64,000 bases of DNA from Candidatus Uhrbacteria bacterium (GTDB taxonomy: Bacteria; Patescibacteriota; Patescibacteriia; UBA9934; GWF2-40-263). The DNA lies in the NCBI GenBank assembly GCA_037131775.1, contig JBAXQK010000002.1, positions 23,472 through 87,471 of the forward strand, written 5' to 3'. The translations under genes and the position numbers were made by a program. The notes beneath the pieces were generated by a model, which was not told the DNA's origin, did not search any database, and saw only the letters and a program-made list of their open reading frames with translations. Of the stretch, positions 11,207 to 60,937 are shown in pieces (position 1 is the stretch's first letter; every line of letters begins with the position of its first letter).

Positions 11207-11213
11207 AAAAAAA

Positions 11214-11290
11214 GTGGTGGAGTGATGGAGTGGTGGAGTGGTGGAGTTTAACACTCAATCACTCAATCACTTCATCACTCCATCACTATT
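11214..11290. repeat. family-A palindromic repeat element (two arms of 8-mer units around loop TTAACA)
   Basis: GGTGGAGTGATGGAGTGGTGGAGTGGTGGAGT ... CTCAATCACTCAATCACTTCATCACTCCATCACT was seen. It lies between the ftsZ stop and the nrdR start. Confidence 0.75.
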
Positions 11291-11295
11291 ATACA

Positions 11296-12648
11296 CTACA
11301 TCATCTTCTTCCGGATAAACGCCGGGATCTCGATCTCCTCTTCCTCGGTTTGCTGCTTCTGCTGCGCCATCGGCTGCGGCGGAGGCGGCATGTACTGGGA
11401 GCTCGTCGGGGCCTGGCGCGCCTGGAAGCTCGGGGCACCGCTCTGCTGGATCGGGCTGCTCATGGTCGGCAGCGCGTACGACGGCTGGACGTATGCCGGC
11501 TGTGGCTGCTGGACCGGCATCGGCGGCGGCATCATCGGGCGCATGGGAGCCGGCTGGGGCTGCGGCTGAGGATAGCTTACCGGGGCCTTCTGCTGACGAC
11601 GGGCCTGGTCGTCTTCGCGAACGCGGAGCGGGGCCGGGGTCCAGGTGTTCTGGGCCGGGATCTCGACCACTCCGGGGGCGGCCATGCGTCGGTCGCGCGA
11701 GTCAAATCCCGTGGCAACGACGGTGATGCGAACCTCCTCGCCCATGCTCTCGTCGATGTTGGCGCCGAAGATGACGCGCGCGTCCTCGTCGGCCGAGCCG
11801 GTGATGATCTTGGCGGCCTCCGCGACCTCGTGCATGCCGAGGTCCGTTCCGCCCGTGATCGTGAACAGGATCCCCTTGGCGCCGTCGATGGCGACCTCGA
11901 GGAGCGGTGAGGCGATCGCCTGCTTGGCGGCCTCCACGGCGCGGTTCTCGCCGGTGGCGCGGCCGATGCCCATGAGCGCGGAGCCGGAGTTCTGCATGAT
12001 GGCCTTCACGTCGGCGAAGTCGACGTTGATGAGTCCCGGGATGGTGATGAGCTCGGAGATTCCCTGCACGCCCTGGCGGAGCACGTCGTCCACCACCTTG
12101 AACGCGTCGAGGAGCGAGGTCTTCTTGTCGATGATCTGGAGCACGCGGTCGTTCGGGATGGTAATGATCGTGTCCACGTACTGGAGAAGCTGCTGATACC
12201 CTTCCTCGGCGATGCGTCGGCGCTGGGCGCCCTCGAACGAGAATGGCTTCGTGACCACGGCGATGGTAAGCGCGCCGATTTCCTTCGCGACCTTCGCCAC
12301 CTCCGGCGTTGCCCCCGTTCCGGTTCCGCCTCCGAGCCCGCACGTCACGAACACCATGTCCGCGCCGTTGAGCACCGTGCGAATCTCGTTGACGCTTTCC
12401 TCGGCCGCGTGTCGACCGACTTCCGGGTTCATGCCGGCGCCAAGGCCGCGCGTTACCGTCTTTCCGATCGGAATCTTGTTCGGCGCGAGATTCTGATGGA
12501 GCGCCTGCACGTCCGTATTCACGACGATAAACTCGACGCCCTTGATCTTGTCCGAAATCATGCGGTTCACCGCCGCGCCTCCGCCCCCACCAATGCCAAC
12601 CACCTTGATCTTGGCAAACGTCTCAATGTCGGGTTTCACTTCGGCCAT
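11296..12648 (-). CDS. ftsZ: cell division GTPase FtsZ with long Pro/Gln-rich C-terminal linker
   Basis: The tubulin motif GGGTGTG is present. The protein is 450 aa with a C-terminal conserved peptide. Confidence 0.95.
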
Positions 12649-42937: not shown

Positions 42938-44422
42938 ATGCCTGACAATGCGCGAACCTACGACGAGCTGACGCGGCTGATCGCGTCTACCTACGAGAAT
43001 CCCGACCTCGGGCTTGTTTCTCGCGCGTATGAGATGGCCGAGGGAGCACATCAGGGCATCATCCGGCTGACCGGCGACCCGTACATCGTTCACCCGCTGG
43101 CCGTGGCATACAAGCTGGCCGAGATGGGATCGAACCTGAACGTGGTCGCGGCAGGGCTCCTGCACGACGTCGTTGAGGACTCGGAGATCACTGTCGAGGA
43201 AGTGTCGGCCAAGTTCGGGGAAGACATCGCGTCGCTCGTCGATTCGCTCACCAAGCTGAAGAAGGTGAAGTACTCGGGGACGGACCGGTACGCGGAAAAC
43301 ATGCGCAAGATGTTTCTGGCGATGGCCAGCGACGTGCGCGTGGTGTTCATCAAGTTTGCGGACCGGCTGCACAACCTGAAGACGCTCTATGCCCAGCCGC
43401 GCCACAAGCAGGAACGCATCGCCAAGGAGTCGCTCGAAATCTACGCGCCGATCGCGGGACGCCTCGGCATGAGCGAGTTCAAGGGAGAGATCGAGGACCT
43501 GTGCTTCGAGTACCTGTACCCGCGCGACTACGAGCGCGTGCGCGACATGATCACGGCCAAGGTGCGCGAAAAGGGGGCGTACGTCTCACGCATCATCGAC
43601 CAGACCGAAAAGTTTCTCGCCGAGTTCAACATCGTGGACGCGGCGGTGCACGGCCGGGTCAAGCGCCTGTACAGCCTGTTCAAGAAGCTTGGAAAGTACG
43701 ACGACGACCTCTCGAAGGTCTACGACCTTATCGCCATCCGCGTCATCGTAAAGGACGTGGAGGAGTGCTACGGCGTGCTCGGGATCCTCCACCAGAAGTT
43801 CACGCCGATGCCGGGACGCATCAAGGACTACCTCGCCCAGCCGAAGCCGAACGGATACCAGAGTCTCCACACGACGGTGTTTACCGACGACGGCGAGATC
43901 GTCGAGTTCCAAATTCGCACGCAGGAAATGCACGAGCTTGCCGAGTTCGGCGTGGCCGCGCACTGGCGCTACAAGGAGGCCGGCATGTCCCCGCTCAAGA
44001 ACCTGTACTGGATGGAGGAGCTCGCCAAGATCCAGAAAGAGCTGTCCGGAAAGAAGGACTTCATGGAGCAGCTGGAGATCATGAAGATCGACGTATTCAA
44101 GGACCGCATCTTCGTGTTCACCCCGAACGGCGACGTCATCGACCTCCCCGAGGGCGCCTCCCCGGTCGATTTCGCCTACGCCATCCACACCGAGCTCGGC
44201 AACAAGTGCTCGGCCGCTCGCGTGAACGGCGTCATGCGCAACCTAGACACCGCGCTGCGCTCGAACGACGTCGTCGAGATCGTCACCGACAAGAACCGCC
44301 GCGGCCCGAACCCCGACTGGATCAAGTTCGTAAAGACGCACCACGCCAGGTCAAAAATAAAGGACGCGGCCAAATCGACCGTGTCCGGCTGGCTGAGGGG
44401 GATGATTTCAAGGAAAGCCTAG
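42938..44422 (+). CDS. rel: bifunctional (p)ppGpp synthetase/hydrolase, short Rel/SpoT homolog (HD + synthetase + TGS; no ACT domain)
   Basis: The HD motif (HPLAVA...LLHDVVEDS), synthetase core (RVKRLYSLFKKL, IAIRVIV) and a TGS domain are present. The protein is only 494 aa. Confidence 0.85.
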   Translation: MPDNARTYDELTRLIASTYENPDLGLVSRAYEMAEGAHQGIIRLTGDPYIVHPLAVAYKLAEMGSNLNVVAAGLLHDVVEDSEITVEEVSAKFGEDIASLVDSLTKLKKVKYSGTDRYAENMRKMFLAMASDVRVVFIKFADRLHNLKTLYAQPRHKQERIAKESLEIYAPIAGRLGMSEFKGEIEDLCFEYLYPRDYERVRDMITAKVREKGAYVSRIIDQTEKFLAEFNIVDAAVHGRVKRLYSLFKKLGKYDDDLSKVYDLIAIRVIVKDVEECYGVLGILHQKFTPMPGRIKDYLAQPKPNGYQSLHTTVFTDDGEIVEFQIRTQEMHELAEFGVAAHWRYKEAGMSPLKNLYWMEELAKIQKELSGKKDFMEQLEIMKIDVFKDRIFVFTPNGDVIDLPEGASPVDFAYAIHTELGNKCSAARVNGVMRNLDTALRSNDVVEIVTDKNRRGPNPDWIKFVKTHHARSKIKDAAKSTVSGWLRGMISRKA

Positions 44423-45294
44423 ACGTCGGACAGGCGACCGAGGAGCTCGAGGAGCTCCTCTTTCGAATAGAAGCTGATCGCGACGGTTCCCTTTCCGCCT
44501 TTCTCGGTGATCTCGACCTTCGTACCGAAGATTTCGCGGAGCCGATTTTCATGCGCCGCGACGTTCGGATCCTTCGTCGTCTTTACGCCGTCGATTTTCT
44601 TTCCTTTCGATCCGAGTCCGACGCGCTCTTCCATCTCGCGGACGGACATTCCGCCGTTCAGCATCTGCTGGAACAACGAGCGTCGACGAACGGGATCGGC
44701 TTCGGCGAGAAGCGTGCGAGCATGCGACTTCGTCAGCTTCCCGTCGCGCAGCGCATCGAGGACGTCGTCCGGAAGGTCGAGAAGCCTCAAGATATTTGCC
44801 ACGTTGCTGCGACTCTTTCCGACGCGCGCCGCGACCGCCTCCTGGGTCAATCCGAATTCGTCGACGAGCGCCTTATACGCGATCGCTTCTTCAACGGCGT
44901 TCAGGTCCTGGCGCTGGATGTTCTCAATGAGCGCGAGCTCAAGCTTCTGCTGCTCGCTTGCCTCGCGACAAATCGCCGGGATCGTCTTCAACCCAAGCGC
45001 CGAGCACGCGCGGAACCGTCGCTCGCCCGCGATCAGCTCGTAGCCGTTCGCCACGCGCGTGACCGTCACGGGCTGCATGATGCCATGTTCCTTGATCGAC
45101 GCGATCAGATCCTCGAGCTCGGCCGGCGAAAAGTGACTCCGCGGCTGGCGCGGGTTCGGGACGATCTGGTCGAGCGGGACGTCCAAGATCTCCCGTCGCG
45201 CCGATGGGATGATCTGCTCCGTCATCGTGCGCGGAGCCTGGCCGTTTGGAATGAGCGATCCGAGACCGCGGCCGAGAGCGGGTTTCATCATCAT
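44419..45294 (-). CDS. parB: chromosome partitioning protein ParB/Spo0J
   Basis: ParB box GERRFRA and an HTH are present. Its 3' end overlaps the convergent rel gene by 4 nt. Confidence 0.9.
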   Translation of the reverse strand: MMMKPALGRGLGSLIPNGQAPRTMTEQIIPSARREILDVPLDQIVPNPRQPRSHFSPAELEDLIASIKEHGIMQPVTVTRVANGYELIAGERRFRACSALGLKTIPAICREASEQQKLELALIENIQRQDLNAVEEAIAYKALVDEFGLTQEAVAARVGKSRSNVANILRLLDLPDDVLDALRDGKLTKSHARTLLAEADPVRRRSLFQQMLNGGMSVREMEERVGLGSKGKKIDGVKTTKDPNVAAHENRLREIFGTKVEITEKGGKGTVAISFYSKEELLELLGRLSDV

Positions 45295-46064
45295 ACGTTT
45301 CCTTCTTCGCGCAGAATGAATTCGCGTGCCAGCCGCTCGTACGCCTTCGCCGCCTTTGAGGACGGATCGTAACCGAGAATCGTCTTGCCGAACGACGGAG
45401 CCTCGGCGAGGCGGACGGAGCGCGGGATGACGGAGCGAAAAATCTTGTCCGGGAAATAGCGGTACAGCTCCTCGAGAACTTCCTGCGACAACCGCGTGCG
45501 CGAGTCGAACATCGTAATCACCGCGCCCATCACGTTCAGCTCCGGCTTCAGGTTTTCCTTGATTAGGTTCACGGTGTTCATCAGCTGGCCGAGCCCCTCG
45601 AGCGCGAAATATTCTGCCTGGACGGGGATGAGAACGGAGTCGGACGCGACGAGGCCGTTGATCGTGAGCAATCCGAGCGTCGGCGGGTTATCGATGAGGA
45701 TGTAATCGTAGTCGTTGCGGATCTCCAGCAGTGCCTTCCGAAGAAAGTGCTCGCGCTCCTCCACGTTAACAAGCTCGATCGCCGCGCCCGCGAGCGCCTG
45801 CGTCGCCGGGATGACCTTCAGCCCTTCGTGAGCCGTCGGATGAATCACGTCGCGCATGGACTTCTGCCCGATGATCCCCTCGTAGATCCCATGCTCCAAC
45901 TCCGCATGCGCGATCCCAAGCCCGGAAGTGGCGTTCGCCTGCGGGTCGAGGTCGATCACAAGGACAAACTTCCCCTGCTCCGCCAAATACGCGGCCAAAT
46001 TCAACGTCGTCGTGGTCTTTCCCACGCCTCCCTTCTGGTTAACGACGGATACGATGTGTGCCAT
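45291..46064 (-). CDS. parA: chromosome partitioning ATPase ParA/Soj
   Basis: A deviant Walker A (KGGVGKTTT) is present. The start was reassigned to MAHIVSVVN. Confidence 0.9.
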   Translation of the reverse strand: MAHIVSVVNQKGGVGKTTTTLNLAAYLAEQGKFVLVIDLDPQANATSGLGIAHAELEHGIYEGIIGQKSMRDVIHPTAHEGLKVIPATQALAGAAIELVNVEEREHFLRKALLEIRNDYDYILIDNPPTLGLLTINGLVASDSVLIPVQAEYFALEGLGQLMNTVNLIKENLKPELNVMGAVITMFDSRTRLSQEVLEELYRYFPDKIFRSVIPRSVRLAEAPSFGKTILGYDPSSKAAKAYERLAREFILREEGNV

Positions 46065-46099
46065 AGAACGAATGCAGTATACCAAATGAAACCACAAAC

Positions 46100-46130
46100 A
46101 AAAAGATCCGTCGCGATGACGGATCTTTTT
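46100..46130. terminator. palindromic intrinsic terminator downstream of the minus-strand tRNA cluster
   Basis: AAAAAGATCCGTCGCGATGACGGATCTTTTT. On the minus strand the hairpin is followed by T5. Confidence 0.6.
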
Positions 46131-46206
46131 GGTTGCGGGGGTCGGATTTGAACCGACGACCTCCAGGTTATGAGCCTGGCGAGCTGCCTGGCTGCTCTAC
46201 CCCGCG
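46130..46206 (-). tRNA. tRNA-Met (CAT), initiator-like (C1:A72 mismatch)
   Basis: The reverse complement is CGCGGGGTAGAGCAGCCAGGCAGCTCGCCAGGCTCATAACCTGGAGGTCGTCGGTTCAAATCCGACCCCCGCAACCA. Its acceptor and T-arm closely resemble the E. coli initiator tRNA. Confidence 0.8.
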
Positions 46207-46256
46207 GCCTGCGTCCGTAAAGGCGCACGCCGCGAGCGATCAGTCTGAATCAGCTT

Positions 46257-46333
46257 TGGTAGCTGGGGGCGGAATCGAACCGCCGACCTAGGGCTTATGA
46301 GTCCCTCGCTCTAACCGACTGAGCTACCCAGCC
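46257..46333 (-). tRNA. tRNA-Met (CAT) elongator (or tRNA-Ile2 if lysidinylated)
   Basis: The reverse complement is GGCTGGGTAGCTCAGTCGGTTAGAGCGAGGGACTCATAAGCCCTAGGTCGGCGGTTCGATTCCGCCCCCAGCTACCA. Confidence 0.8.
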
Positions 46334-46388
46334 TCGATGTGCCAGGATGATACCAGACACGGTGCCGCTTGGCAAGCATTTATCCTCC

Positions 46389-46474
46389 TGGTGGGCGAGG
46401 AGGGACTCGAACCCTCAAGCCCTTGCGGACACGGGATTTTGAGTCCCGCGCGTATACCATTCCGCCACTCGCCC
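46389..46474 (-). tRNA. tRNA-Leu (anticodon CAA), type II with long variable arm
   Basis: The reverse complement is GGGCGAGTGGCGGAATGGTATACGCGCGGGACTCAAAATCCCGTGTCCGCAAGGGCTTGAGGGTTCGAGTCCCTCCTCGCCCACCA. Confidence 0.85.
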
Positions 46475-46581: not shown

Positions 46582-47046
46582 ATGACTTTGACAACGCACG
46601 CGACGCTCGGGGCGGTCATTGGCCACGCGGTTGGAAATCCGGTGGTTGCCTTCGTCCTTGGGTTCATTTCCCACTTCATGATCGACATGATCCCGCACGG
46701 CGACACCGGAATCTCGGACAACTTTCGCGTCCACAAGACGCGCCAAACCCAAGCCGTGGCCTACGTGGCCGTCGACGCCATCGTCGCGCTCCTCTTCGTT
46801 CTCCTCCTCGCCAACACCCGCGACATCGACCACGTCCGCACGTTTACCTGGGGCATTATCGGCAGCGTCCTCCCCGATTTGATCGTCGGCGTCTACGAAG
46901 TCACCAAGACCCCGCTGCTGCGATGGTTCAACACGATGCATTTCTACTTCCATGATTTCTTCGTAAAGAGGCGCGGAGAGGTTCCGCTGTATTATGCCTT
47001 GTTGGCGCAGGTGGTGTTGATTGCTTATTTGCAGACGAAGTTGTAA
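46582..47046 (+). CDS. membrane-bound metal-dependent hydrolase-like protein (YdjM/DUF457-like)
   Basis: Starts MTLTTHATLGAVIGHAV...HFMIDMIPHGD. It has 4 TM segments and conserved His/Asp residues. Confidence 0.55.
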   Translation: MTLTTHATLGAVIGHAVGNPVVAFVLGFISHFMIDMIPHGDTGISDNFRVHKTRQTQAVAYVAVDAIVALLFVLLLANTRDIDHVRTFTWGIIGSVLPDLIVGVYEVTKTPLLRWFNTMHFYFHDFFVKRRGEVPLYYALLAQVVLIAYLQTKL

Positions 47047-47051
47047 TCGCG

Positions 47052-47080
47052 AAAAAAAGAACTCCGTAAGGAGTTTTTTT
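47052..47080. terminator. bidirectional intrinsic terminator
   Basis: AAAAAAAGAACTCCGTAAGGAGTTTTTTT. Confidence 0.6.
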
Positions 47081-47089
47081 GTGGCTTGC

Positions 47090-47660
47090 CGCCACACCGC
47101 GTCACTTTCTTTCAGCCGTGAAAGAAAGTAACCAAAGAAACCGTCCGCCCGGTCTCCATGGCGGGCCGGGACGGAAAAGGCGGCCTCGGCTGCGGAACTC
47201 GCTAGTCCGCCAAGTAAAACAAAAAGAGCGGAACTTCGCTCAGACAATCCTCGCCCGTCCTGATGGACCCGGCCGCCTTTTCCGTCCCGTCTCCATCCGT
47301 CATTCCGACAGGGCGGGTTATCCGGGCGGTGTTGCGATGGTTATTTTTGGCTGAGGCCGTAATAACTTTCAACGTTTCCCCTCCTCATAGGGAGGAGGGG
47401 TCAGGGGTGGCCGTCGCGCCATAAACAAAAAACTTCCATCCGGTCGCCGCCCTGCCGGAGCGACCCAGCCAGGACGTGAAAAATTGGCGGGTGCATCAGC
47501 ACGGGCGAGGATTGTCTGAGCGTGCGAGCCCGTAGGCGAGAAGCGAGTTCCGCAGCCGAGCCAATTTTTCGCGTTCTGGCGTAGGAGCGGATGGCCGGGC
47601 GGAAGGCTCTCTTTGCCTACTTTCTCTGTCCGCCCCACAGAGAAAGTAGGTCGGGTGCAG
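47090..47660. other. approximately 570-bp noncoding region dense in nested inverted repeats and hairpins (candidate structured RNA, or a MITE-like repeat pile-up)
   Basis: Terminal hairpins are CACTTTCTTTCA-GCCG-TGAAAGAAAGT (47107-47135) and CCTACTTTCTCTGT-CCGCCC-CACAGAGAAAGTAGG (47617-47651). Internal pairs include GGACGGAAAAGGCGGCC with GGCCGCCTTTTCCGTCC, CTCGGCTGCGGAACTCGC with GCGAGTTCCGCAGCCGAG, and CAGACAATCCTCGCCCGT with ACGGGCGAGGATTGTCTG. It also contains one family-C hairpin. Confidence 0.5.
47373..47418 (+). repeat. family-C GC-hairpin repeat (copy 1)
   Basis: GTTTCCCCTCCTCATAGGGAGGAGGGGTCAGGGGTGGCCGTCGCG, with a 9-bp perfect stem CCCCTCCTC/GAGGAGGGG. Confidence 0.75.
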
Positions 47661-47687
47661 GGCGAAGCGCCTGCGGAAAAAACATCC

Positions 47688-48731
47688 CTAAACCTTTTCG
47701 ATTATCGAAACAATCCCCCGAGCACACCGCTCCCAGGTAAACTCCCCTGCCCGCGCCTTTGCCGCGGCAATCATCTCCCCGAGCGCCTCCGGCATCATCA
47801 CGCACTGGGCGATCGCAAACGCCATCTGCTCGGCATCGTCGGGATCGACGTACATCACCGCGTCGCCCCCAACCTCCGGCAATGCGCCGCGGTTCGACGT
47901 GACGACCGGAACCCCGGCCGACATCGCCTCTAGGACCGGCAGGCCGAACCCTTCCTCCCACGACGGAAAGAAAAAGCACGACGCCTGCGCGTACAGGTTC
48001 GCCTTCTCGTCCTCGGTCACGTATCCGACCTGCCGCACGACATTTCCTCCCGCGACCGACCGCCACGCATCGTTCGTCTGCGCGATCGCCTCGAGGATTG
48101 GCTCGGCGTTCCAACCGATGCCGCCGGCGATTACGAATCGCGTCGTCGCGGCGCGATCCTTGTGCATGCGCAGGAACGCGTCGAACGCGGCGAGCGCGTT
48201 GACGAGGTTCTTGCGCGGCTCGAGGGTGCCGACGAAGAGGATCGTGTCGGAGGTGAGTAGTGAGTGATTGGTAGTTTGTAGTTTGGAGACACCCGGATAT
48301 ACCACGACCACCTTGTCGACGACATCCGGAAACACTCGTCCAATCTGTCGCTTCGTCGCCTCGGAGATCGCGATGACCGCGTCCGCCCGTCGCAGCGACC
48401 TAGGGACGAGGAACTTCGCGGCGAAGTCGAGCTTCGTCGCCGGGAACCATTCGGGGTGCTCGTAGATGGTCAGGTCGTGAACCGTCACGACGGTCTTTCC
48501 CGTCCAGCACAGTGGCGACTGATTGGCCGGGCAGAACAGGACGTCCGTCATCTTCATCGTCGCGACGAGCGCCAGGTTCACGTGGCGCGTCAGAAACGGG
48601 ACGCGGCGCTTTGGGTTCCAAACGAAGAGATCCGTTCCAAGAACGGATCGCATGGCCGTGACGACGGAGCGCGTGTACGTGCCGATTCCCGCGCCGTCCC
48701 GCATCGTGGTGCCGTCGACCGCGATCCTCAT
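47688..48731 (-). CDS. glycosyltransferase family 4 (GT-B fold)
   Basis: The start was reassigned to MRIAVDGTT (ATG 48731). The C-terminal motif is EGFGLPVLEAMSAGVPVV. A repeat-encoded in-frame insert KLQTTNHSLLTSDT sits at the inter-domain linker. Confidence 0.8.
   Translation of the reverse strand: MRIAVDGTTMRDGAGIGTYTRSVVTAMRSVLGTDLFVWNPKRRVPFLTRHVNLALVATMKMTDVLFCPANQSPLCWTGKTVVTVHDLTIYEHPEWFPATKLDFAAKFLVPRSLRRADAVIAISEATKRQIGRVFPDVVDKVVVVYPGVSKLQTTNHSLLTSDTILFVGTLEPRKNLVNALAAFDAFLRMHKDRAATTRFVIAGGIGWNAEPILEAIAQTNDAWRSVAGGNVVRQVGYVTEDEKANLYAQASCFFFPSWEEGFGLPVLEAMSAGVPVVTSNRGALPEVGGDAVMYVDPDDAEQMAFAIAQCVMMPEALGEMIAAAKARAGEFTWERCARGIVSIIEKV
48253..48287. repeat. composite family-A/family-B repeat fragment embedded in-frame in the GT4 gene
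   Basis: GTGAGTAGTGAGTGATTGG followed by TAGTTTGTAGTTTGGAG. Confidence 0.6.
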
Positions 48732-50181: not shown

Positions 50182-50750
50182 AGGGCGGAGTCATTGAGCG
50201 AGGAGGTCATCGAGTCGCTGAGCGAGTCGACGAGCTCCGTCATCTTCTTGTCGTCGTGCAGGTCGAGATAGTCGGGAAGGTCCGCGATCGAGTGGATCCC
50301 AAGGTGCCGCACGAAGTCCGCGGACACGGTAAACACCGGCTGCAGACGCTCGATGTCGTCGACCTCGTCCACGAGTCCTCGCATAGAGAGGTTACGCAGG
50401 ATGAGCGAGCAGTTCACGCCGCGAATCTGCTCGATCTCCGGCTTCGTGATCGGCCCGCGGTATGCGATGATGGTCAGCGTCTCAAGCGACGGCCGCGACA
50501 GTTCCCCGCTCACCTCCTCCTTCAAAAGCGCCGCGACGACCGCGGACTCGGACGGGTTCGTAACGAACTGCAGCTTCCCCCCGTGCTCGACCACGTGGAT
50601 GCCGGACGCGTCGACGTTGAATCGCACCTTCACGTCCGCGATCGCCTCGAGAAGCACCTCGTCGGAAACGTTCAGCGACTTTTTCAAAACCGAAATCGCG
50701 ACCGGCTTTGCCGACGCGAATAGGATCGATTCGAGGGAGGTCGTGAGCAT
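50178..50750 (-). CDS. scpB: segregation and condensation protein B
   Basis: Tandem winged helices are present (LETLTIIAYRGPITKPEIEQIRGV). Confidence 0.9.
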   Translation of the reverse strand: MLTTSLESILFASAKPVAISVLKKSLNVSDEVLLEAIADVKVRFNVDASGIHVVEHGGKLQFVTNPSESAVVAALLKEEVSGELSRPSLETLTIIAYRGPITKPEIEQIRGVNCSLILRNLSMRGLVDEVDDIERLQPVFTVSADFVRHLGIHSIADLPDYLDLHDDKKMTELVDSLSDSMTSSLNDSAL

Positions 50751-50758
50751 AGGGGAAA

Positions 50759-50828
50759 GTGGTGGAGTGACGGAGTGATGGAGTACCTAACCACTCCACG
50801 ACTTCATCACTTCATCACTCAATCACTC
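50759..50828. repeat. family-A palindromic repeat element
   Basis: GGTGGAGTGACGGAGTGATGGAGT-ACCTAA-CCACTCCACGACTTCATCACTTCATCACTCAATCACTC was seen. It encodes the last two codons of scpA. Confidence 0.7.
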
Positions 50829-51514
50829 TTCGTAATCAGTATATCGTGAAACGACCCTCCTTGGACAGCCTTCACCACGCGCTGCTTCATGAGCTCGAGG
50901 AGCGCGAGGAAACTGACGACGACCTCGACCTTCGACGCGCCGCTCGCGACCATCTCGTGGAACAGGACCTTCGATCGGTCGACCATCGCGGCCTGGAGCT
51001 GCTTCATGCGCTCCTGGATGGACACGACGCGCTCGATCGACGACTGTCGCAGCGCGAAGAACGGCTCGAGGCGCTTCTGCACGGCCTGGAACAGCTCGCG
51101 GAGAATCGGCGGCGTCACGTTCTTCGGCGGAAGGAACTGACGCACCTTCGCGATCGACGCCTTCTCCCGCGCGAACATGTCCTTCCCCGCCCCGAACATC
51201 TCCTCGATCATCGCCGACGCGTGCACGAAACGCTTGTACATCCGCAGCTGATCGGCAAGCTTCGCCCCGTCCTCCTCCGCGTCGAGGTTCAGCTGCGGAA
51301 GGATGGCGTGCGACTTGATGAGCAGCAACTTCGTCGCGACGACGAGGAAATCCGCCAGCTCTTCAGCGGGAACCTCGTGCTCGTTCACGTGCCTCAGATA
51401 GTCCTCGGTGACCTTCGCAAGAGAAACCTCCGTAATCGGAAGTTTCTCTTGCTCGATCAGGTCGAGAAGAAGTTGGAGAGGGCCGGAGTATTGGTCGAGG
51501 GTGACTTGGAACAT
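50819..51514 (-). CDS. scpA: segregation and condensation protein A
   Basis: Starts MFQVTLDQYSGPLQLLLDLIEQEKLPITEVSLAKVTEDYL. The start was reassigned. Confidence 0.85.
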   Translation of the reverse strand: MFQVTLDQYSGPLQLLLDLIEQEKLPITEVSLAKVTEDYLRHVNEHEVPAEELADFLVVATKLLLIKSHAILPQLNLDAEEDGAKLADQLRMYKRFVHASAMIEEMFGAGKDMFAREKASIAKVRQFLPPKNVTPPILRELFQAVQKRLEPFFALRQSSIERVVSIQERMKQLQAAMVDRSKVLFHEMVASGASKVEVVVSFLALLELMKQRVVKAVQGGSFHDILITKSD

Positions 51515-53020: not shown

Positions 53021-53067
53021 ACGTTTCCCCTCCTCATAGGGAGGAGGGGTCAGGGGTGGTCGTCGCG
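53021..53067 (+). repeat. family-C GC-hairpin repeat (copy 2), in the aspS 5' leader
   Basis: Nearly identical to copy 1; TGGTCGTCGCG variant. Confidence 0.75.
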
Positions 53068-56246: not shown

Positions 56247-56292
56247 CGTTCCCCCTCCTCATAGGGAGGAGGGGTCAGGGGTGGTCGTCGCG
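56247..56292 (+). repeat. family-C GC-hairpin repeat (copy 3), between ruvX stop and recO start
   Basis: CCCCCTCCTCATAGGGAGGAGGGGTCAGGGGTGGTCGTCGCG. Confidence 0.75.
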
Positions 56293-57495: not shown

Positions 57496-58128
57496 CTAAT
57501 TTCCCATTTCTAATTTATCAACGATCCTCTCCTGGACCTCCTCGACCGTGCCGACCCCGTCGACGCGGACCAGCACGCCCTTCTCCTCGAACCTCCCGAG
57601 CATCGGCGTGGTGTCGTTGTCGTAAATGTCGAGCCGGCGGCCGATGGCGGCCTCGGTGTCGTCGTCGCGCCGAACGAACGCTCCGCCGCACGCGCACGCG
57701 TCGCCTTCCTTTGCCCCGTCCTTCGTCGACGCGACCGCGCCGCAGCTCGAGCAAGTCAAGCGTCCGCCGAGACGATTCAACGATTCCTCGCGCGGAACCT
57801 CGATCACGATCACGTGCGTCGGCGCGTCGAACGTAAACGCCGCATACTGCTTCAAGTTGCGCGGATACCCGTCGAGGACATATCCGTTGATCGCGTCAGG
57901 ACGGGACAGACGCGCCTGGAGAACCTCCGCGGCGACTTCGTCGGACACCAGGTTCCCGGCCTTCAGAATCCCGTCGACCTTTAGCCCGACATCCGATCCC
58001 GCCGCGACTTCGTCACGCAGCAGCTGCCCCATCGCAAGTGCCGGAACGTTCAGCTTCTTCGACAAGATCTGCGCCTGCGTCCCTTTTCCGCTGCCCTGCG
58101 GGCCGAGAAGGATGATTTTATAGGTCAT
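57496..58128 (-). CDS. adk: adenylate kinase (with zinc-binding lid, CSSC...CACG)
   Basis: P-loop GPQGSGKGTQ and a Cys4 lid are present. Confidence 0.9.
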   Translation of the reverse strand: MTYKIILLGPQGSGKGTQAQILSKKLNVPALAMGQLLRDEVAAGSDVGLKVDGILKAGNLVSDEVAAEVLQARLSRPDAINGYVLDGYPRNLKQYAAFTFDAPTHVIVIEVPREESLNRLGGRLTCSSCGAVASTKDGAKEGDACACGGAFVRRDDDTEAAIGRRLDIYDNDTTPMLGRFEEKGVLVRVDGVGTVEEVQERIVDKLEMGN

Positions 58129-58133
58129 ATGTT

Positions 58134-58688
58134 CTAAGTTTTTTGGGTGGTGGAATTTTTGGGTGGATTGAATCTGCCCAGCACAATGTAGTAAAAAATA
58201 CGTGCAAAAATCCTAAACAACAATATCCAGATAAGTGGAAGACCGAGAAATGCCAAACTAATATTCAACCAACGTGGTTGTGTAATGATTGATAAGTTGT
58301 AAAGTCTGTGCTTATCAAAACATTCTGAATCTGTTAACTCACTTGATAAGAGACAGTCTGTCATTAAACGCCTGGATTCTGTTTCATCTCTGAAAGAAAA
58401 GTTACAATGCGTAAGAATTGATGTATCGTCTACATGAAGTTGCCCATTATACAGCCTAGAGAATATCTCATCAGAAGAGATTTTAGCATCTACGAGTGTG
58501 GATGATTTTCCAGAACCGCAACGAATGGTTGAATCATCGTAATTAATGGCAAGTCCGTTTTGATGAATAATAAATAAATAATAGCTTGCCGCAATCACAA
58601 ACAATAACACACAAACACTAACAACCTTCAGCAGGCGAAACCACACGCGTGTGTTCAGTTCTTGAATGGAGTGAATTTTATTACTCAT
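58134..58688 (-). CDS. hypothetical membrane protein (2 TM, Cys-containing extracytoplasmic loop) in the AT-rich island
   Basis: About 33% GC versus about 60% surroundings. It is translationally coupled to the upstream ORF by an ATGA overlap. Confidence 0.5.
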   Translation of the reverse strand: MSNKIHSIQELNTRVWFRLLKVVSVCVLLFVIAASYYLFIIHQNGLAINYDDSTIRCGSGKSSTLVDAKISSDEIFSRLYNGQLHVDDTSILTHCNFSFRDETESRRLMTDCLLSSELTDSECFDKHRLYNLSIITQPRWLNISLAFLGLPLIWILLFRIFARIFYYIVLGRFNPPKNSTTQKT

Positions 58689-59026
58689 AGAGATGTCGCT
58701 TTATTTGCGGCAAATTCATCCACTCCCGTTTTAATTTCGATTAGTTCTTGATATCGAATGGGCGACGGTATGTAAAAATCAAGAATGGAACTATTCGTCA
58801 GTATTAACTCTATCACCTCACGATCGGTCAGATTTTCAAAAAGAATTACCCGTAGCGCAACTTTAATATCAGCCTTTTGCCAAGGAAGCTCGTCTTCAAA
58901 AAAATATAGTCCAGGACGCCTATTCTCAAGATACAAAGCAAAATCACCTACAACTTCCCACGCGGTTTTAGAATCTAGATTTTTTTTAAGATCGTCTGCG
59001 AGAGATTTTTGAAAACTCATACGCAA
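58685..59026 (-). CDS. hypothetical protein (113 aa) in the AT-rich island
   Basis: AT-rich codon usage. Tightly packed in the operon. Confidence 0.5.
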   Translation of the reverse strand: MRMSFQKSLADDLKKNLDSKTAWEVVGDFALYLENRRPGLYFFEDELPWQKADIKVALRVILFENLTDREVIELILTNSSILDFYIPSPIRYQELIEIKTGVDEFAANKATSL

Positions 59027-59029
59027 TAA

Positions 59030-59320
59030 TCACCACAGCTGGATACAAATACCCCTTGCTGCGGAGATACAATAAACACTTCTAAAGGAGTGGCGAATTT
59101 TAATTGTTTTATGCATCATCTCGTGAATGTTTGTATTTGTCCATGGGAAAATTCCAAAGTTGATCAGTAATTGTAAGGTTTTTTGAGTATCTATTGAATA
59201 CTCTTCTGCCTTATGTCCCAAAGCCTCTCTTATCCTTATGGCATCATTTTGTATTCTCAACGCTGGAAGATCGAAAGACTCTCCACGTTCATATTTTTTT
59301 AATTGGGCGAGTTGAAACAT
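59030..59320 (-). CDS. hypothetical protein (96 aa) in the AT-rich island
   Basis: AT-rich. It overlaps the upstream ORF by 22 nt in another frame, so the two may be one frameshifted gene. Confidence 0.4.
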   Translation of the reverse strand: MFQLAQLKKYERGESFDLPALRIQNDAIRIREALGHKAEEYSIDTQKTLQLLINFGIFPWTNTNIHEMMHKTIKIRHSFRSVYCISAARGICIQLW

Positions 59321-59556
59321 ATTCCGGAATTCAGGCTCCTCAAATGGTGTATTCCGAACGGGAACAGCATAACAATTTGGACCATTAGATTATTTTCAAT
59401 TTCAGAATTCTTAATTTTAAAGAGAAGATCACACTCTGGTTCTAAATATTCTTGATCTTTAACTTCAAAAGAATACTTTGTGGAATTAATTTTATTGTAT
59501 GTAGAAACAAACAAATTGCCAATTTCCCTTAATTCATCACGGCTTGGTTCTGACAT
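59299..59556 (-). CDS. hypothetical protein (85 aa) in the AT-rich island
   Basis: AT-rich. First gene of the island. Confidence 0.35.
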   Translation of the reverse strand: MSEPSRDELREIGNLFVSTYNKINSTKYSFEVKDQEYLEPECDLLFKIKNSEIENNLMVQIVMLFPFGIHHLRSLNSGICFNSPN

Positions 59557-59595
59557 ATTTCCCGCTCATTATACCAGAAGACGAGGACTCTCGCC

Positions 59596-59657
59596 CCCGT
59601 CTTTGTAGCAATCCGTAGTATTTGTAGTTTAGCGGCCAATTCGTAGTTTCGTATCCC
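59596..59657. repeat. family-B half-copy at the secY-proximal boundary of the AT-rich island
   Basis: TTTGTAGCAATCCGTAGTATTTGTAGTTTAGCGGCCAATTCGTAGTTTCGTATCC. Confidence 0.6.
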
Positions 59658-59662
59658 TGTCT

Positions 59663-60937
59663 CTACATGTCGTACTCGTGCATGCTCATCTGCGCCTCCA
59701 TCTGCTTCATCGTCTCAATGACCACGTTCACCACGATCAGGACGGACGTTCCGCCGATCACGAGGGAGGCGTTGCCGGTCACCTGCTGGGCGACGAGCGG
59801 GAGGATGGCGATCATGGAGAGGAAGACGGCTCCCACGAGCAGGACGCGGTTGGTGACCCAGGCGATGTACTCGGCCGTAGGCTTGCCCGGACGGATGCCC
59901 GGGATGAAGCCGCTCTGCTTCTGGAGGTTTTCCGCCACGCGGTCCGGGTGGAAAATGACCGACGTATAGAAGTACGTGAAAGCGAACACCAGGCCGAAGT
60001 AGATGATGCCGTACACCAGCTGGTTCTGGAACACTTGGAGCACCCACTGCGCGGCGGTGCGCAGGGCCTCGGTTCGGGCGTTCAGGAAGAACTGGGCGAT
60101 GACGCGCGGGAAAAGGATAATGCTGATCGCGAAGATGATCGGGATCACGCCGGCGATGTTGAGCTTGATGGGGAGGTTGGACGGCACGGCTCCGGAGAGA
60201 CGCGTTCCGCGGGTCTGTCGGGCGTACTGCACCGGGATGTTGCGCTGCGCCTCGTGCATGACAACGACGGCGCCGAGCGTCACCACGACGAGGATGGCGA
60301 AAATGATCGCGGTGATCATCTGGGATCCGTCATAGAGCGCGAGCGACTGGCCGAAGTAGTTCGGAAGGCCGGCGATGATTCCGGCGAAAATCAGGATGGA
60401 CGTTCCATTGCCGAGGTTCTTCTCCGAGATGAGCTCTCCCATCCACATGAGGAAGATCGTTCCGGCCGTAAGCGTTCCCATTACGAGGACCGTGGTGAAC
60501 AGGTCGGCGGTTCCGGCCGTGAACAGCTTGGCGCCGGACTGCTGGTTGAACAGGAGCACGAGGCCGTATCCCTGCAGGAGGGCGAGCGGAACCGTGAGCA
60601 CGCGCGACCACTGGTTGATCCGCTGGCGTCCCTGCTCTTCCTTCTGCATCTCCTCAAGCTTCGGGATGATCATCCCGAGCAGCTGGAAGATAATGGAAGA
60701 CGTGATGAACGGCGCGAGGCCGAGCGCCACGATGGAGAAGTGCTGGAGCGTGCCGCCCGAGAAGATGTTCAGGAGGCCGAAAAACTGGTTGCCTTGAAAG
60801 TAATTCACGAGCGCGCTTGGGTCCACGCCCGGAACCGGGATGTGGGCCGCGACGCGGAAAATGACGAGCATCGCGAAGATGAACAACAGGCTGTTACGAA
60901 CCTCTTTGGTCTTCCAAACGCGCGTGAATGAAAACAT
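59663..60937 (-). CDS. secY: preprotein translocase subunit SecY
   Basis: 10-TM SecY with conserved plug and TM2/TM7 regions. Confidence 0.95.
   Translation of the reverse strand: MFSFTRVWKTKEVRNSLLFIFAMLVIFRVAAHIPVPGVDPSALVNYFQGNQFFGLLNIFSGGTLQHFSIVALGLAPFITSSIIFQLLGMIIPKLEEMQKEEQGRQRINQWSRVLTVPLALLQGYGLVLLFNQQSGAKLFTAGTADLFTTVLVMGTLTAGTIFLMWMGELISEKNLGNGTSILIFAGIIAGLPNYFGQSLALYDGSQMITAIIFAILVVVTLGAVVVMHEAQRNIPVQYARQTRGTRLSGAVPSNLPIKLNIAGVIPIIFAISIILFPRVIAQFFLNARTEALRTAAQWVLQVFQNQLVYGIIYFGLVFAFTYFYTSVIFHPDRVAENLQKQSGFIPGIRPGKPTAEYIAWVTNRVLLVGAVFLSMIAILPLVAQQVTGNASLVIGGTSVLIVVNVVIETMKQMEAQMSMHEYDM

Follow-up and report, generated by a model that had tools for sequence, protein, structure and literature searches.

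What occupies the non-coding interval of about 600-630 nt that separates two convergent genes at positions 47052-47685 of the window, i.e. the whole stretch of 64,000 nucleotides of Uhrbacteria DNA that we analysed? The first-pass annotation described a gene-free region of nested inverted repeats between convergent genes at 47090-47660, and considered it a candidate structured non-coding RNA or a MITE-like element. The gene-free region is real, and its true extent, from about 47052/47062 to 47685, is a little wider than was noted: in blastn comparisons of the window with metagenome copies, the alignments begin at 47062-47078 and finish at 47681-47688. The left neighbour is a plus-strand gene for a 154-aa membrane protein that ends at 47046, and the right neighbour is a minus-strand gene for a GT4 glycosyltransferase that ends at 47688 (stop codon 47688-47690). 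One Logan contig stops at the element's edge, 38 nt past the gene for the glycosyltransferase. The same sequence is present, without any difference, in an independent assembly (ENA ERZ27300037), and an assembly artefact is therefore excluded. Protein coding was ruled out as well, since the internal ORFs of 53-91 aa have no Pfam match and their frames are disrupted by 1-nt indels between copies. As argued below, the interval is one copy of a dispersed, non-coding palindromic element, which is probably mobile:

47052-47685, no strand assigned: the whole palindromic element (L module, apex and R module), delimited by blastn against metagenome copies, by comparison of the ends across copies, and by empty loci.

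Several observations indicate that the element has been inserted at this site and dispersed to others. Firstly, among about 40 Uhrbacteria loci, the spacing of this gene pair is 2-80 nt in most cases, and a distance of 630-660 nt was found only in the window and in loci L003 and L004. At the syntenic site, L007 carries a single R-type module and L006 a remnant. The element is kept at 82-93% in two other species-level genomes. Secondly, a search for other copies, which the first-pass annotation had proposed, was productive: at least eight other contigs of one metagenome contain copies that are 80-92% identical, with unrelated flanks and without the flanking genes of the window. The motif pair, searched for as an exact-match pattern, was present in 16 metagenome loci, and L068 has two copies with 3.8 kb between them. 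When 53 Uhrbacteria loci, with about ±6 kb around each, and 128 kb of Nevskiales DNA were searched for other copies, only L003, L004, L006 and L007 had one, at the syntenic site. Thirdly, a locus in Nevskiales (L061) has the same two-module palindrome, and its relatives show empty sites. Insertion relative to the Uhrbacteria loci, the dispersed copies and the filled and empty Nevskiales sites all support the MITE-like reading of the first-pass annotation. Inspection of nine copies showed no direct repeat at their boundaries that would represent a target-site duplication, the empty sites being too diverged for exact junctions. The inverted ends of L057 reach about 33 nt further, and in five copies a different GC hairpin adjoins the CTTTTTCTTTTT end of the element. 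As to possible vectors, blastn of the window's element against phages and plasmids gave no match, and the motif pair is missing from viral contigs.

The surroundings of the copies also bear on what the element may do. The genes downstream of the copies encode an AMP-binding enzyme, a thioesterase, an esterase, an ABC permease and others, and the orientation of the neighbouring genes varies. A riboswitch or other cis-regulatory leader was rejected for these reasons, as the downstream genes are of no one class and the orientation relative to the neighbours is not constant. A replication origin was also considered: parA and parB are nearby, but the region is not AT-rich, shows no skew switch, and relatives lack the element at this position.

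What looks like nested inverted repeats is a module of 230-285 nt that the element carries twice, as diverged copies in inverted orientation, of which one (L) is read on the minus strand and the other (R) on the plus strand. The whole interval is thus a single long imperfect inverted repeat, with a left arm at about 47090-47358 and a right arm at about 47409-47664 that share 75-80% identity with indels. The main parts of the two modules are:

47052-47336, minus strand: L module, defined by covariance model R1 and the consensus fold, for which an outward RNA of about 285 nt is predicted, starting at the candidate promoter by the apex and stopping at the terminator.
47165-47291, minus strand: core of the L module, in which the 21-bp helix P1 (47165-47185 with 47271-47291) encloses P2, the invariant junction and P3; based on covariation and an R1 score of 145.6 bits.
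47237-47252, minus strand: invariant junction motif GAGGATTGTCTGAGCG of the L module.
47190-47202, minus strand: invariant junction motif GCGAGTTCCGCAG of the L module.
47369-47418, no strand assigned: nested family-C repeat at the apex, a CCCCTCCTC/GAGGAGGGG hairpin followed by TCA-GGGGTGG, recognised from four copies in the window.
47432-47685, plus strand: R module, defined by its R1 score, fold and strand bias.
47468-47580, plus strand: core of the R module, in which P1 (47468-47488 with 47560-47580, two of its pairs being G·U when read on the plus strand) encloses P2, the junction and P3; based on covariation and an R1 score of 113 bits.
47507-47522, plus strand: invariant junction motif GAGGATTGTCTGAGCG of the R module.
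47543-47555, plus strand: invariant junction motif GCGAGTTCCGCAG of the R module.

The family-C hairpin that had been noticed inside the region is indeed present at the apex, and three more copies of this repeat are found elsewhere in the window. It also occupies the apex of L003, L004 and L057, and is missing from that of L058, L062, L066 and L069. Its sequence has a third-strand pattern of the G/T purine-motif type.

The two hairpins that bound the region are homologous parts of the left and right arms. They had been described as similar and perfect: both exist, and the right one is paired at 14/14 positions, but the left one is paired at 13/14 and only its ACTTTCTTTCA core is perfect. Likewise, the ends had been likened to terminal inverted repeats, and they are inverted and homologous, although each is more than a simple repeat in that it forms a conserved end module. 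The long-range complementary pairs are real, and we located five of them: 47237-47292 with 47467-47522 (56 nt, 80%), 47165-47203 with 47542-47580 (39 nt, 77%), 47167-47185 with 47271-47289 (19 nt, 100%), 47468-47488 with 47560-47580 (21 nt, 90%), and 47299-47316 with 47447-47464. However, their nested arrangement is not a selected structure but a by-product of the two inverted homologous modules, because P1 is paired at 86-100% within an arm, whereas the two arms are only 50-62% identical over the same columns. The junction, on the other hand, is 95-100% identical between arms.

This difference is also important for a possible rod. The region as a whole folds exceptionally well: the folding energy of 47085-47665 corresponds to z = -13.3 (plus strand) and z = -14.5 (minus strand), with 0/100 shuffles folding as well. 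The minimum-free-energy fold is a rod in which L pairs with R, and it would be conceivable that arm-arm pairing produces a long rod-like hairpin RNA (a dsRNA or antisense precursor) or a DNA cruciform with a role in replication or recombination; the z values of -13 to -14.5 on both strands agree with this. However, the rod has no strand preference (-323 versus -325 kcal/mol), the differences between L-type and R-type modules are conserved across copies, and lone single modules exist (L007, L056, L059, L064 and L065). As pairing is conserved inside each arm but not from one arm to the other, we rejected the rod, which we consider highly improbable.

Taken separately, the modules fold with about -117 and -112 kcal/mol, each by itself, and better on the strand running from the centre outward. 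A folded module contains a closing helix (P0), the 21-bp P1, the small hairpins P2 and P3 around the invariant junction, and the end module. The junction, CGAGGAUUGUCUGAGCG / AGCGAGUUCCGCAG, would permit tandem G·A pairs; its invariance at distant loci is partly forced by the exact-match search pattern. The comparative check for covariation that the first-pass annotation had suggested supported the fold. In the alignment, whose sequences are related copies, 95% of the cells are paired, and double changes occur in 23/38 pairs, including 17/21 pairs of P1; P0 and the lower stem of P5, the terminal hairpin, co-vary too. None of 500 shuffles reached the observed values, and the covariation score of 0.454 compares with at most 0.093 for slid controls, which are at least fivefold lower. 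The module therefore has a conserved secondary structure that is backed by compensatory changes.

In addition, the structure is strand-biased. The sense strand folds better than its complement in 23 of the 26 modules, by 10.4 kcal/mol on average, and does so in 9/10 proteobacterial arms; in the case of the R module, the plus strand is favoured by 21.9 kcal/mol. The G·U cells outnumber the A·C cells by 27 to 9 in P0 and P1 together, and by 30 to 4 in P5. Compensatory covariation in the helices of each arm and this strand bias support the structured reading of the region. An explanation without selected structure, by passive accumulation of unrelated repeats or by faulty assembly, could appeal to the separate small family-C repeat nested in the region and to the Logan contig break. 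Against it, the covariation, the invariant junction and the recurrence of the architecture across phyla favour selection, in addition to the identity of the second assembly and the 82-93% conservation in the two other species-level genomes. Together with the matches of the covariance model, these data effectively refute it, and we attach practically no weight to it.

The end of the module consists of a pyrimidine tract, a pyrimidine/purine hairpin (P5) and a GC clamp hairpin (P6):

47101-47132, minus strand: P5 of the L module, GTCACTTTCTTTCA/TGAAAGAAAGTAAC at 47101-47114/47119-47132, 13/14 paired, with a lower stem that co-varies.
47616-47650, plus strand: P5 of the R module, CCTACTTTCTCTGT/ACAGAGAAAGTAGG at 47616-47629/47637-47650, 14/14 paired.
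47134-47140, minus strand: candidate third-strand tract (Y3) of the L module, UUUCUUU, which mirrors the pyrimidine arm of the hairpin (7-nt match at a distance of 5 nt; none on the other strand).
47608-47614, plus strand: candidate third-strand tract (Y3) of the R module, UCUCUUU, in parallel register with the purine run AGAGAAA at 47639-47645 (7-nt match at a distance of 5 nt).
47081-47095, minus strand: P6 clamp hairpin of the L module, GTGGCGGCAAGCCAC.
47657-47674, plus strand: P6 clamp hairpin of the R module, GCAGGGCGAAGCGCCTGC, followed by a GGAAAAAACA tail that runs to the glycosyltransferase stop codon at 47688-47690.

The co-varying counterpart of the L clamp is GCAGGGCG.AGCGCCTGC in R modules, and in Burkholderiaceae it is GCCGCCCCGC.CAGGGGCGAC. 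Every module hairpin has, on its sense strand, a Hoogsteen-compatible pyrimidine tract of 6-8 nt at a fixed distance of 5 nt (2 nt as scored in L065), and no such tract is found on the antisense strand, save one 6-nt match 12 nt away in L065. Furthermore, the mirror tract and the purine arm change together in eight sequence variants. This joint change of tract and hairpin predicts that the end folds back into a short triple helix. A lower stem of 4-5 bp would leave only a 1-nt link from the third strand to the helix, a geometry that is plausible on paper. A mirror repeat of the pyrimidine tract is clearly distinguished from a direct repeat in only three variants (7 versus 5 nt), the difference elsewhere being 1 nt in low-complexity sequence. 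The module of most copies ends in hairpin-GGAAAA and not in a U-tract, and hence gives no defined 3' end.

With respect to expression, two sites flank the L module:

47343-47372, minus strand: candidate sigma-70-like promoter, TTGAAA-N18-AAAAAT, just upstream of the L module, identified by its match to the consensus.
47052-47080, no strand assigned: predicted bidirectional terminator hairpin (A-run, CTCCGTAAGGAG, T-run), with the minus-strand site at 47075 to 47060, based on reading of the sequence.

Two promoter-like sites were found where 0.3 would be expected, and L066 has an equivalent site, TTGCCT-N17-AATAAT, upstream of its L module. Conservation of the -10 hexamer from copy to copy is poor, and the R module yielded no promoter-like site. 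On the plus strand, the terminator hairpin appears to end the 154-aa protein gene; on the minus strand, it would do the same for the L transcript. In Burkholderia, a solo end module overlaps, in sense orientation, the sRNA candidate Bp1_684 (Bp1_Cand684_SIPHT), located between the co-directional genes aceF and lpdA. Bp1_684 is reported to be positive by RT-PCR (Khoo et al. 2012, PMC3521395), in an assay whose strand specificity was not demonstrated.

The position of the element with respect to transcription units raises the possibility that it acts in cis, as an intergenic device comparable to REP/BIME or ERIC sequences that would serve as a bidirectional insulator or terminator, or as a 3' stabiliser of the flanking mRNAs, and whose spread would be passive or due to recombination. 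On the one hand, the element is always intergenic, often directly past the terminator hairpins of its neighbours, as in the five copies in which a different GC hairpin abuts it; the L end in the window includes the terminator of the 154-aa protein gene, and the gene orientation around the copies is variable. On the other hand, the strand of each arm that folds better and bears the G·U pairs reads outward and is antisense to transcripts from the nearer gene, the invariant 16-nt junction and the multi-helix fold exceed what a terminator needs, and most relatives manage with a spacer of 2-80 nt at this site. We regard a cis-acting role of this kind as unlikely.

We prefer to view the element as a non-autonomous mobile cassette that carries two outward-transcribed structured RNAs, a reading that, in our judgement, is evenly poised between being right and being wrong. 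According to this reading, the cassette would have been inserted between the membrane-protein and glycosyltransferase genes in this Uhrbacteria lineage, and each module would be transcribed outward from the apex to yield a structured RNA of about 250-290 nt. The 3' part of this RNA may then be stabilised by its end module, folded back as a short triple helix of U·A-U and C+·G-C triples, and the cassette as a whole would spread by means of an enzyme encoded elsewhere. That the modules are transcribed, that a triple helix forms, how the cassette moves and what it may do in the cell are points that we infer from sequence.

The window copy appears to belong to a superfamily that is also present in Beta- and Gammaproteobacteria. 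Matches to the end module were found in Paraburkholderia (at least 40 places per replicon), Ralstonia (105 records), Burkholderia, Pasteurella, Aeromonas, Variovorax and others, and Paraburkholderia, Pasteurella and Ralstonia have full palindromes with outward-facing end modules. The hairpin cap in Ralstonia is CUGUCUGAGCG-N-AGCGAGUU. Examples of copies lie on the megaplasmid of Ralstonia pseudosolanacearum GMI1000 (NC_003296.1, about 302661-303136), in Pasteurella multocida (NZ_CP020346.1, about 244467-244882) and in Paraburkholderia (NZ_AP023181.1, about 575039-575619 and 581329-581899). The Pasteurella element has no match in E. coli genomes. Across phyla, the end modules are the most conserved parts and the interiors differ.

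This distribution is also what might be expected if the structure acted in DNA. The covariation, the tolerance of G·T pairs and pyrimidine-motif triplexes are compatible with folded single-stranded DNA, too, and the element could resemble REPINs or MITEs whose folded single-stranded ends and internal helices are recognised by a transposase or recombinase acting in trans, for instance of the HUH type, with transcripts being incidental. The dispersed copies with unrelated flanks, the filled and empty sites and the high copy number in Paraburkholderia agree with this possibility, as does the conservation of the ends, which an enzyme that recognises them would impose; the solo end modules look like decay products. 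Moreover, mirror repeats are a classical signature of DNA triplexes, the G/T purine-motif third strand of family C is of the type best known for DNA, and G·T is the best tolerated DNA mismatch, so that the strand bias is compatible with DNA. However, the whole element in single-stranded form would prefer the rod (-323 kcal/mol) over the modules (-117 and -112 kcal/mol), and selection maintains pairing within and not between arms, which is the opposite of the situation in REPINs. In addition, the structure is kept along the full 230-285 nt of each arm, beyond the termini, and a target-site duplication, a GTAG/CGTC tag and a nearby transposase were not found. Among the alternatives to our reading this is the foremost, and we consider it possible, but on the whole improbable, that DNA is the active form.

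A broader version of the RNA-carrying cassette reading can be envisaged, in which mobile cassettes of this type form one family from Patescibacteria to Beta- and Gammaproteobacteria, each with a divergent pair of structured RNAs that bear fold-back triple-helix caps at their 3' ends. The junction might be recognised by a conserved partner, perhaps the very enzyme that mobilises the cassette, and the RNAs might serve the propagation of the cassette as omega-RNAs and bridge RNAs do. This proposal is speculative and we hold it to be rather doubtful; if true, bacteria would for the first time have a counterpart of the triple-helix stability elements known from RNAs of viruses, vertebrates and plant transposons.

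If our view of the element is correct, it would represent an abundant class of bacterial intergenic repeats that has so far not been catalogued, extending from dozens of copies in Paraburkholderia to the plant pathogen Ralstonia, the animal pathogen Pasteurella and the streamlined genomes of candidate phyla. Its structural logic, with two independently folding modules, an invariant junction and a predicted triple-helix end, would be unlike that of REPs, REPINs and classical MITEs. RNA biology would gain a large, covariation-rich candidate family together with a testable bacterial triple helix, and the mobile-element field a family whose spread between very distant phyla needs explanation. For annotators, contig breaks and spurious ORFs at such sites would be explained. 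As carriers that are in culture and have public transcriptomes exist, the key questions are directly testable.

The structured module of the element is absent from Rfam. At the gathering threshold, the search of the window against Rfam 15 that the first-pass annotation had recommended yielded tRNAs alone and no family at the region, where matches at E <= 10 were chance microRNA-type hairpins only. The 16 related loci likewise gave only tRNAs, and L061 and L067 nothing relevant; in all, the searches covered 20 related loci. The region contains no tRNA or tmRNA, in agreement with the earlier impression. Compared by eye, without a formal test, the region showed no convincing match to the hammerhead, domain V of group II introns, P4 of RNase P, SRP or 6S RNA. 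A 10-mer match to eukaryotic 5.8S rRNA is a coincidence. A literature search for the motifs, or for such elements, in Candidate Phyla Radiation bacteria, Burkholderia and Ralstonia returned nothing relevant except the paper on Bp1_684. The one Rfam family that touches the superfamily is RF02421, whose 113-nt model gives 118.8 bits in B. cepacia L085 (match 2900-3011) and overlaps the solo end module there; in the window it has no match even at E = 10. Its first ~40 nt in B. cepacia (L085 2975-3011) correspond to the 3' half of the solo end-module hairpin and the clamp, read outward. The model combines that fragment with the locus-specific aceF-lpdA flank, whereas the palindrome, the core and the pyrimidine tract are not described.

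With its size of about 630 nt (MITEs measure less than about 600-700 bp), its lack of coding capacity, its ends that are inverted copies of the same module, and its dispersed copies with unrelated flanks and presence or absence at orthologous sites, the element resembles MITEs; no parent or autonomous insertion sequence with such ends, and no associated enzyme, was seen in the flanks examined. Transcribed bacterial MITEs and palindromic intergenic repeats include Correia/NEMIS in Neisseria, ERIC/IRU in enterobacteria, and BOX and RUP in pneumococci. These are small, have terminal inverted repeats, show presence/absence polymorphism, lie in intergenic regions near terminators, and may have promoter or terminator activity and RNA structure. 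In contrast, the arms of the present element are long, diverged and individually structured around an invariant junction, and have a mirror-repeat third-strand tract. REPINs are like the element in that they lie between genes, code for nothing, occur dispersed in many copies and consist of a palindromic unit in inverted duplicate, of which single units occur as apparent remnants, and, like the REPINs mobilised by RAYTs, the element would rely on a function encoded elsewhere. However, its units measure 230-285 nt instead of the 20-40 nt of REP sequences, no GTAG/CGTC tag was seen at its boundaries, a RAYT gene was not recognised in the 64 kb analysed, selection holds the folding within each unit and not the pairing between units, and the family spans phyla that include Patescibacteria.

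Some mobile elements likewise carry structured RNAs of about 150-300 nt at their ends, namely the omega-RNAs (TnpB/IscB, IS200/IS605) and the bridge RNA of IS110, and omega-RNAs too read outward into the flanking DNA. However, no tnpB, iscB or IS110 recombinase gene adjoins any copy examined, the neighbours being housekeeping genes, and, tRNAs and chance hairpin matches aside, neither HEARO nor any other Rfam model matched the window, the region or the 16 related loci. To our knowledge, a symmetric double arrangement does not occur in omega-RNA or bridge RNA systems.

Finally, the predicted end can be compared with two kinds of triple helix. The ENEs of KSHV PAN RNA, MALAT1, and plant and fungal transposon RNAs resemble it in having U·A-U major-groove triples, here predicted, near the 3' end of a non-coding, transposon-associated RNA, where triples would block 3'-5' decay. 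They differ in that the U-rich internal loop of an ENE clamps a separate A-rich tail, whereas in the present case it would be a pyrimidine tract 5' of a hairpin that folds back onto that hairpin's purine arm, in a predicted run of only 7-8 triples that includes one or two C+·G-C. We know of no bacterial example of a triple-helix RNA stability element. The resemblance to H-DNA consists of homopurine-homopyrimidine mirror repeats with a short spacer, for which pyrimidine- and purine-motif versions would be possible on opposite strands. However, the tracts are short (7-10 nt) and are joined with an inverted repeat on the same strand, and for this reason a single-stranded fold-back triplex would suit the element better than a supercoil-driven transition of duplex DNA.

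The element occupies window positions 47052-47685, in a chromosome segment of Candidatus Uhrbacteria (Patescibacteria) with about 62% GC, and an identical sequence is found in an independent ENA assembly. It is flanked by two convergent genes:

46582-47046, plus strand: gene for a 154-aa membrane protein, left neighbour
47688-48731, minus strand: GT4 glycosyltransferase gene, right neighbour

The two bounding hairpins and the long-range complementary pairs reported in the first-pass annotation are all present, and shuffled sequence is far less stable than the fold of the interval (z = -13.3 and -14.5 for the two strands). However, alignment of the left half with the reverse complement of the right half showed that the entire interval is a single long imperfect inverted repeat (75-80% identity, with indels), and that the two hairpins are homologous parts of its arms rather than separate bounding features. 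Directly upstream of the 154-aa protein gene lies a tRNA-Met, tRNA-Met, tRNA-Leu cluster (46130-46474, minus strand), and parA and parB (44419-46097) and a RelA/SpoT gene are also nearby. The same strain has an independent assembly from short reads (Logan SRR7053541), whose contig L002 ends at position 5396, 38 nt past the glycosyltransferase stop codon and hence at the element edge; such a break fits an element that is repeated in that genome or hard to assemble.

The element is an insertion, and it is dispersed. We retrieved 53 Uhrbacteria loci that surround orthologues of the 154-aa protein; the glycosyltransferase gene remains the convergent partner there, and the spacer is 2-80 nt in most loci, including 41, -4 and 2 nt in three relatives with 88-90% protein identity. 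A spacer of 630-660 nt is confined to the window and the two loci most closely related to it, L003 and L004, whose elements are 93% and 82.5% identical to the window copy; the few other loci with larger gaps contain ordinary ORFs and no palindromes. Of two further relatives, L007 has a single module in R orientation and L006 only a 3' remnant. When metagenomes were scanned for the two most conserved motifs, 16 loci matched. In one metagenome, eight contigs contain copies that are 80-92% identical to that of the window, within unrelated flanks that lack its two flanking genes, and one 10-kb contig has two copies. These eight contigs also carry the family-C repeat described below and therefore come from close relatives. 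A passive pile-up of repeats is a minor alternative. All copies lie between genes, whether these are convergent, tandem or divergent, and often directly after terminator hairpins of neighbouring genes; that the element acts in cis as an insulator is another minor alternative.

At the left ends of five metagenome copies (L057, L058, both copies in L068, and L069), the CTTTTTCTTTT(T)CC end of the element is directly adjoined by a different GC-rich hairpin that belongs to the neighbouring gene, and flank and element together constitute an intrinsic terminator. The arrangement points either to insertion into terminator T-tracts or to selection that preserves termination.

Copies consist of one L-type and one R-type module, divergently oriented. 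The differences between the two types are kept across copies, which places the divergence of the halves before the spread of the cassette. The modules of four copies abut in a short centre of about 45 nt, and in the window, L003, L004 and L057 the family-C repeat is located at exactly that apex. The parts of a module, in order, are as follows:

closing helix P0
21-bp helix P1
small hairpin P2
invariant strand CGAGGAUUGUCUGAGCG
variable hairpin P3
invariant strand AGCGAGUUCCGCAG
return strands of P1 and P0
end module: pyrimidine tract, 13-14-bp hairpin (5' arm pyrimidine, 3' arm purine) and GC-rich clamp hairpin

By inspection, the two invariant strands could pair as GGA/UCC and GC/GC around tandem G·A pairs. 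The same invariant junction is present in three single modules from metagenome samples Ga0335070/79/80 (L063 345-592, L067 965-1207 and L070 391-637), which lack the pyrimidine/purine end hairpin and have a second UGAGCG/AGCGAG internal-loop motif beside the closing helix. In L067 and L070 the module is followed by a same-strand gene (AMP-binding enzyme, thioesterase); L063 has a candidate plus-strand ORF without a Pfam match, where the coding-score caller favours a gene on the opposite strand. These modules may be a non-mobile or cis-acting branch of the family. In L065, the stretch at 2471-2571, upstream of the single module, contains CACCAATCAAGGGGAC / GTCCCCTTGATTGGTG several times, in direct and in inverted orientation; a perfect 27-nt inverted repeat is among them, and the whole looks like a protein-binding array.

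The proposed structure was tested on 19 distinct modules. Standard pairs occupy 95% of the cells, and 23 of 38 pairs (17 of 21 in P1) have changes on both sides, values that were reached by none of 500 column shuffles. The covariation score was 0.454, versus at most 0.093 when the 3' partners were slid by 1-3 columns, and RNAalifold independently recovered P0, P1 and the terminal hairpin with covariation. In L007, P1 is retained with an entirely different sequence. Furthermore, a covariance model built from the modules recovered second copies in inverted orientation that had escaped the exact pattern, among them one in the distant locus L061. The GAGGAUUGUCUGAGCG-carrying strand, which reads outward, folds better than its complement by a mean of 10.4 kcal/mol (23 of 26 modules), a preference shared by 9 of 10 proteobacterial arms, and G·U cells outnumber A·C cells in the co-varying helices (27 vs 9 in P0 and P1; 30 vs 4 in the terminal hairpin). 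Within each arm, P1 pairing is 86-100%, whereas inter-arm identity in the same columns is 50-62%; thus, the arms fold separately. The junction is 95-100% identical between arms. On the same P1 values, the rod-like global fold was rejected as the selected structure, being a by-product of arm homology, and a working rod hairpin is a minor alternative.

The end module combines its hairpin with a potential third strand. Every module has, on its sense strand, a pyrimidine tract of 6-8 nt that is separated from the hairpin's pyrimidine arm downstream by exactly 5 nt (by 2 nt as scored in L065). It mirrors that arm, and its sequence therefore suits parallel Hoogsteen pairing (U·A-U, C+·G-C) with the purine arm, which predicts a triple helix. 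No such tract accompanies these hairpins on the antisense strand, except for one 6-nt match 12 nt away in L065, and comparable tracts are rare at unrelated pyrimidine/purine hairpins in about 0.9 Mb examined. Tract and purine arm change together:

Purine arm and pyrimidine tract variants
AGAGAAA / UCUCUUU
AAAGAAA / UUUCUUU
GAAAGAAA / CUUUCUUU
AAAGAAAA / UUUCUUUU
AAAAGAA / UUUUCUU
AGAAAGAA / UCUUUCUU
AAAAGAAA / UUUUCUUU
AAGAAAA / UUCUUUU

Mirror and direct repeats are clearly separable in three variants (7 vs 5 nt); in the others they differ by only 1 nt because of low sequence complexity. The hairpin's lower 4-5 bp co-vary too. With these pairs formed, just one nucleotide, crossing the deep groove, would tether the third strand, a geometry that is plausible by comparison with pseudoknot loops.

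The family-C hairpin noted in the first-pass annotation proved to be one copy of a 47-nt repeat with three more in the window:

6040-6093: family-C copy, reverse orientation
47369-47418: family-C copy at the element apex
53021-53067: family-C copy
56247-56292: family-C copy

It also occurs in L003, L004, L038, L056, L057, L064, L068 and L069, and two window copies fill spacers of co-directional genes, just upstream of the start codon. Family C consists of a CCCCTCCTC/GAGGAGGGG hairpin, 3 nt (TCA) and then GGGGTGGT, a tract that is compatible over 8-10 consecutive positions with antiparallel reverse-Hoogsteen pairing (G·G-C, T·A-T) to the purine arm; in L038, tract and arm co-vary (AAGGAGAGGGG with GGGGTGAGGT). 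Judged from sequence, family C is a second kind of hairpin-plus-third-strand module, and it recurs at the apex of the palindromic element. Analogues were seen in Variovorax (L087 1202-1310) and Aeromonas (L088, around 700-721). Elsewhere in the window, tandem 8-nt units (GAGTGATG / GAGTGGTG and complements) lie at several gene boundaries (8828-8885, 11205-11298, 50750-50830 and around 48240-48290), some arrays being arranged as inverted sets with 2.4 kb between them. The genes adk (57496-58128) and secY (59663-60937) are separated by an AT-rich insert, about 1.5 kb long (58134-59662; 40-45% GC versus about 62% elsewhere), that has small minus-strand ORFs of 184, 113, 96 and 85 aa, two of which were tested and gave no Pfam match; it may be foreign DNA within the conserved ribosomal-protein/secY/adk cluster.

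Relatives of the element extend beyond Patescibacteria. Locus L061, placed in the gammaproteobacterial order Nevskiales because of its flanking regulator gene, contains a complete two-module palindrome with core and end modules as in Uhrbacteria, and the same gene pair is just 33-127 nt apart in related genomes, where the site is empty. A blastn search of PLSDB with the L061 element matched only the end module of about 55 nt, in Paraburkholderia (at least 40 places per replicon), Burkholderia, Ralstonia, Pasteurella, Aeromonas, Pseudoalteromonas, Variovorax and Chitinibacter; a second query matched 105 Ralstonia records. Full palindromes with outward-facing end modules were found in three places, none of them annotated:

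Paraburkholderia: two copies in 50 kb
Pasteurella multocida: between dapF and the DUF484-xerC genes
Ralstonia GMI1000 megaplasmid: each arm a 25-bp hairpin capped by CUGUCUGAGCG-N-AGCGAGUU

The Ralstonia cap reads as a minimal form of the Uhrbacteria core. End modules are clearly homologous between lineages and the interiors differ; E. coli genomes gave no match to the Pasteurella element. The Rfam search proposed in the first-pass annotation was run and reported no family for any full element. On a B. cepacia plasmid (NZ_CP023519.1), the spacer separating aceF from lpdA contains a solo end module that shares, in sense orientation (L085 2975-3011), the first ~40 nt of a match to RF02421 Bp1_684 (2900-3011, minus strand), an RT-PCR-positive sRNA candidate of B. 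pseudomallei predicted by SIPHT (PMC3521395). The match starts inside the module and reads outward from it, so the Rfam family looks like a piece of the repeat with locus-specific flank attached.

Based on insertion, dispersal, the two-module build, separate folding of the arms on the outward strand and mirror-tract coupling, we infer that each arm would be expressed as its own structured RNA, outward from the apex, a model to which we give about an even chance. Firstly, selection keeps the intra-arm folds, although a far more stable inter-arm rod would be open to a molecule containing both arms. Secondly, the invariant junction strands are flanked by co-varying helices, an arrangement typical of RNA tertiary or protein-binding platforms. 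Thirdly, promoter-like and terminator-like sites surround the window's L module, and the metagenome locus L066 has a promoter-like TTGCCT-N17-AATAAT at the equivalent position:

47372 to 47343, minus strand: sigma-70-like site TTGAAA-N18-AAAAAT, consensus match just upstream of the L module
47075 to 47060, minus strand: intrinsic terminator candidate at the end of the L module

The end module would stabilise the 3' region of the RNA, and the cassette would spread via an enzyme encoded elsewhere. On the other hand, the -10 hexamers are poorly conserved between copies, the R module yielded no promoter-like site, the U-tract at module ends is missing in most copies, comparison of element boundaries across copies revealed no target-site duplication, and the flanks contained no parent element. 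Moreover, folded single-stranded DNA is compatible with every structural signal. For these reasons the RNA model is put at about even chances, and a REPIN- or MITE-like element working through DNA structure is the main, less probable alternative.

Like MITEs and REPINs, the element is a non-coding, dispersed, inverted-doublet repeat. However, it differs from REPINs in unit size, sequence tag and the conserved inter-unit pairing, and falls in no Rfam family; with regard to target-site duplication and parent element, its assignment to the MITEs is tentative. Its end module is alike in principle to triple-helix stability elements and H-DNA mirror repeats, but the architecture differs from both. 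The likeness to transposon guide RNAs is limited to a structured, outward-reading, end-encoded RNA candidate, and in contrast to them there is no cognate gene near the element. In kind, the element belongs to the bacterial intergenic palindromic repeats, with unusual features.
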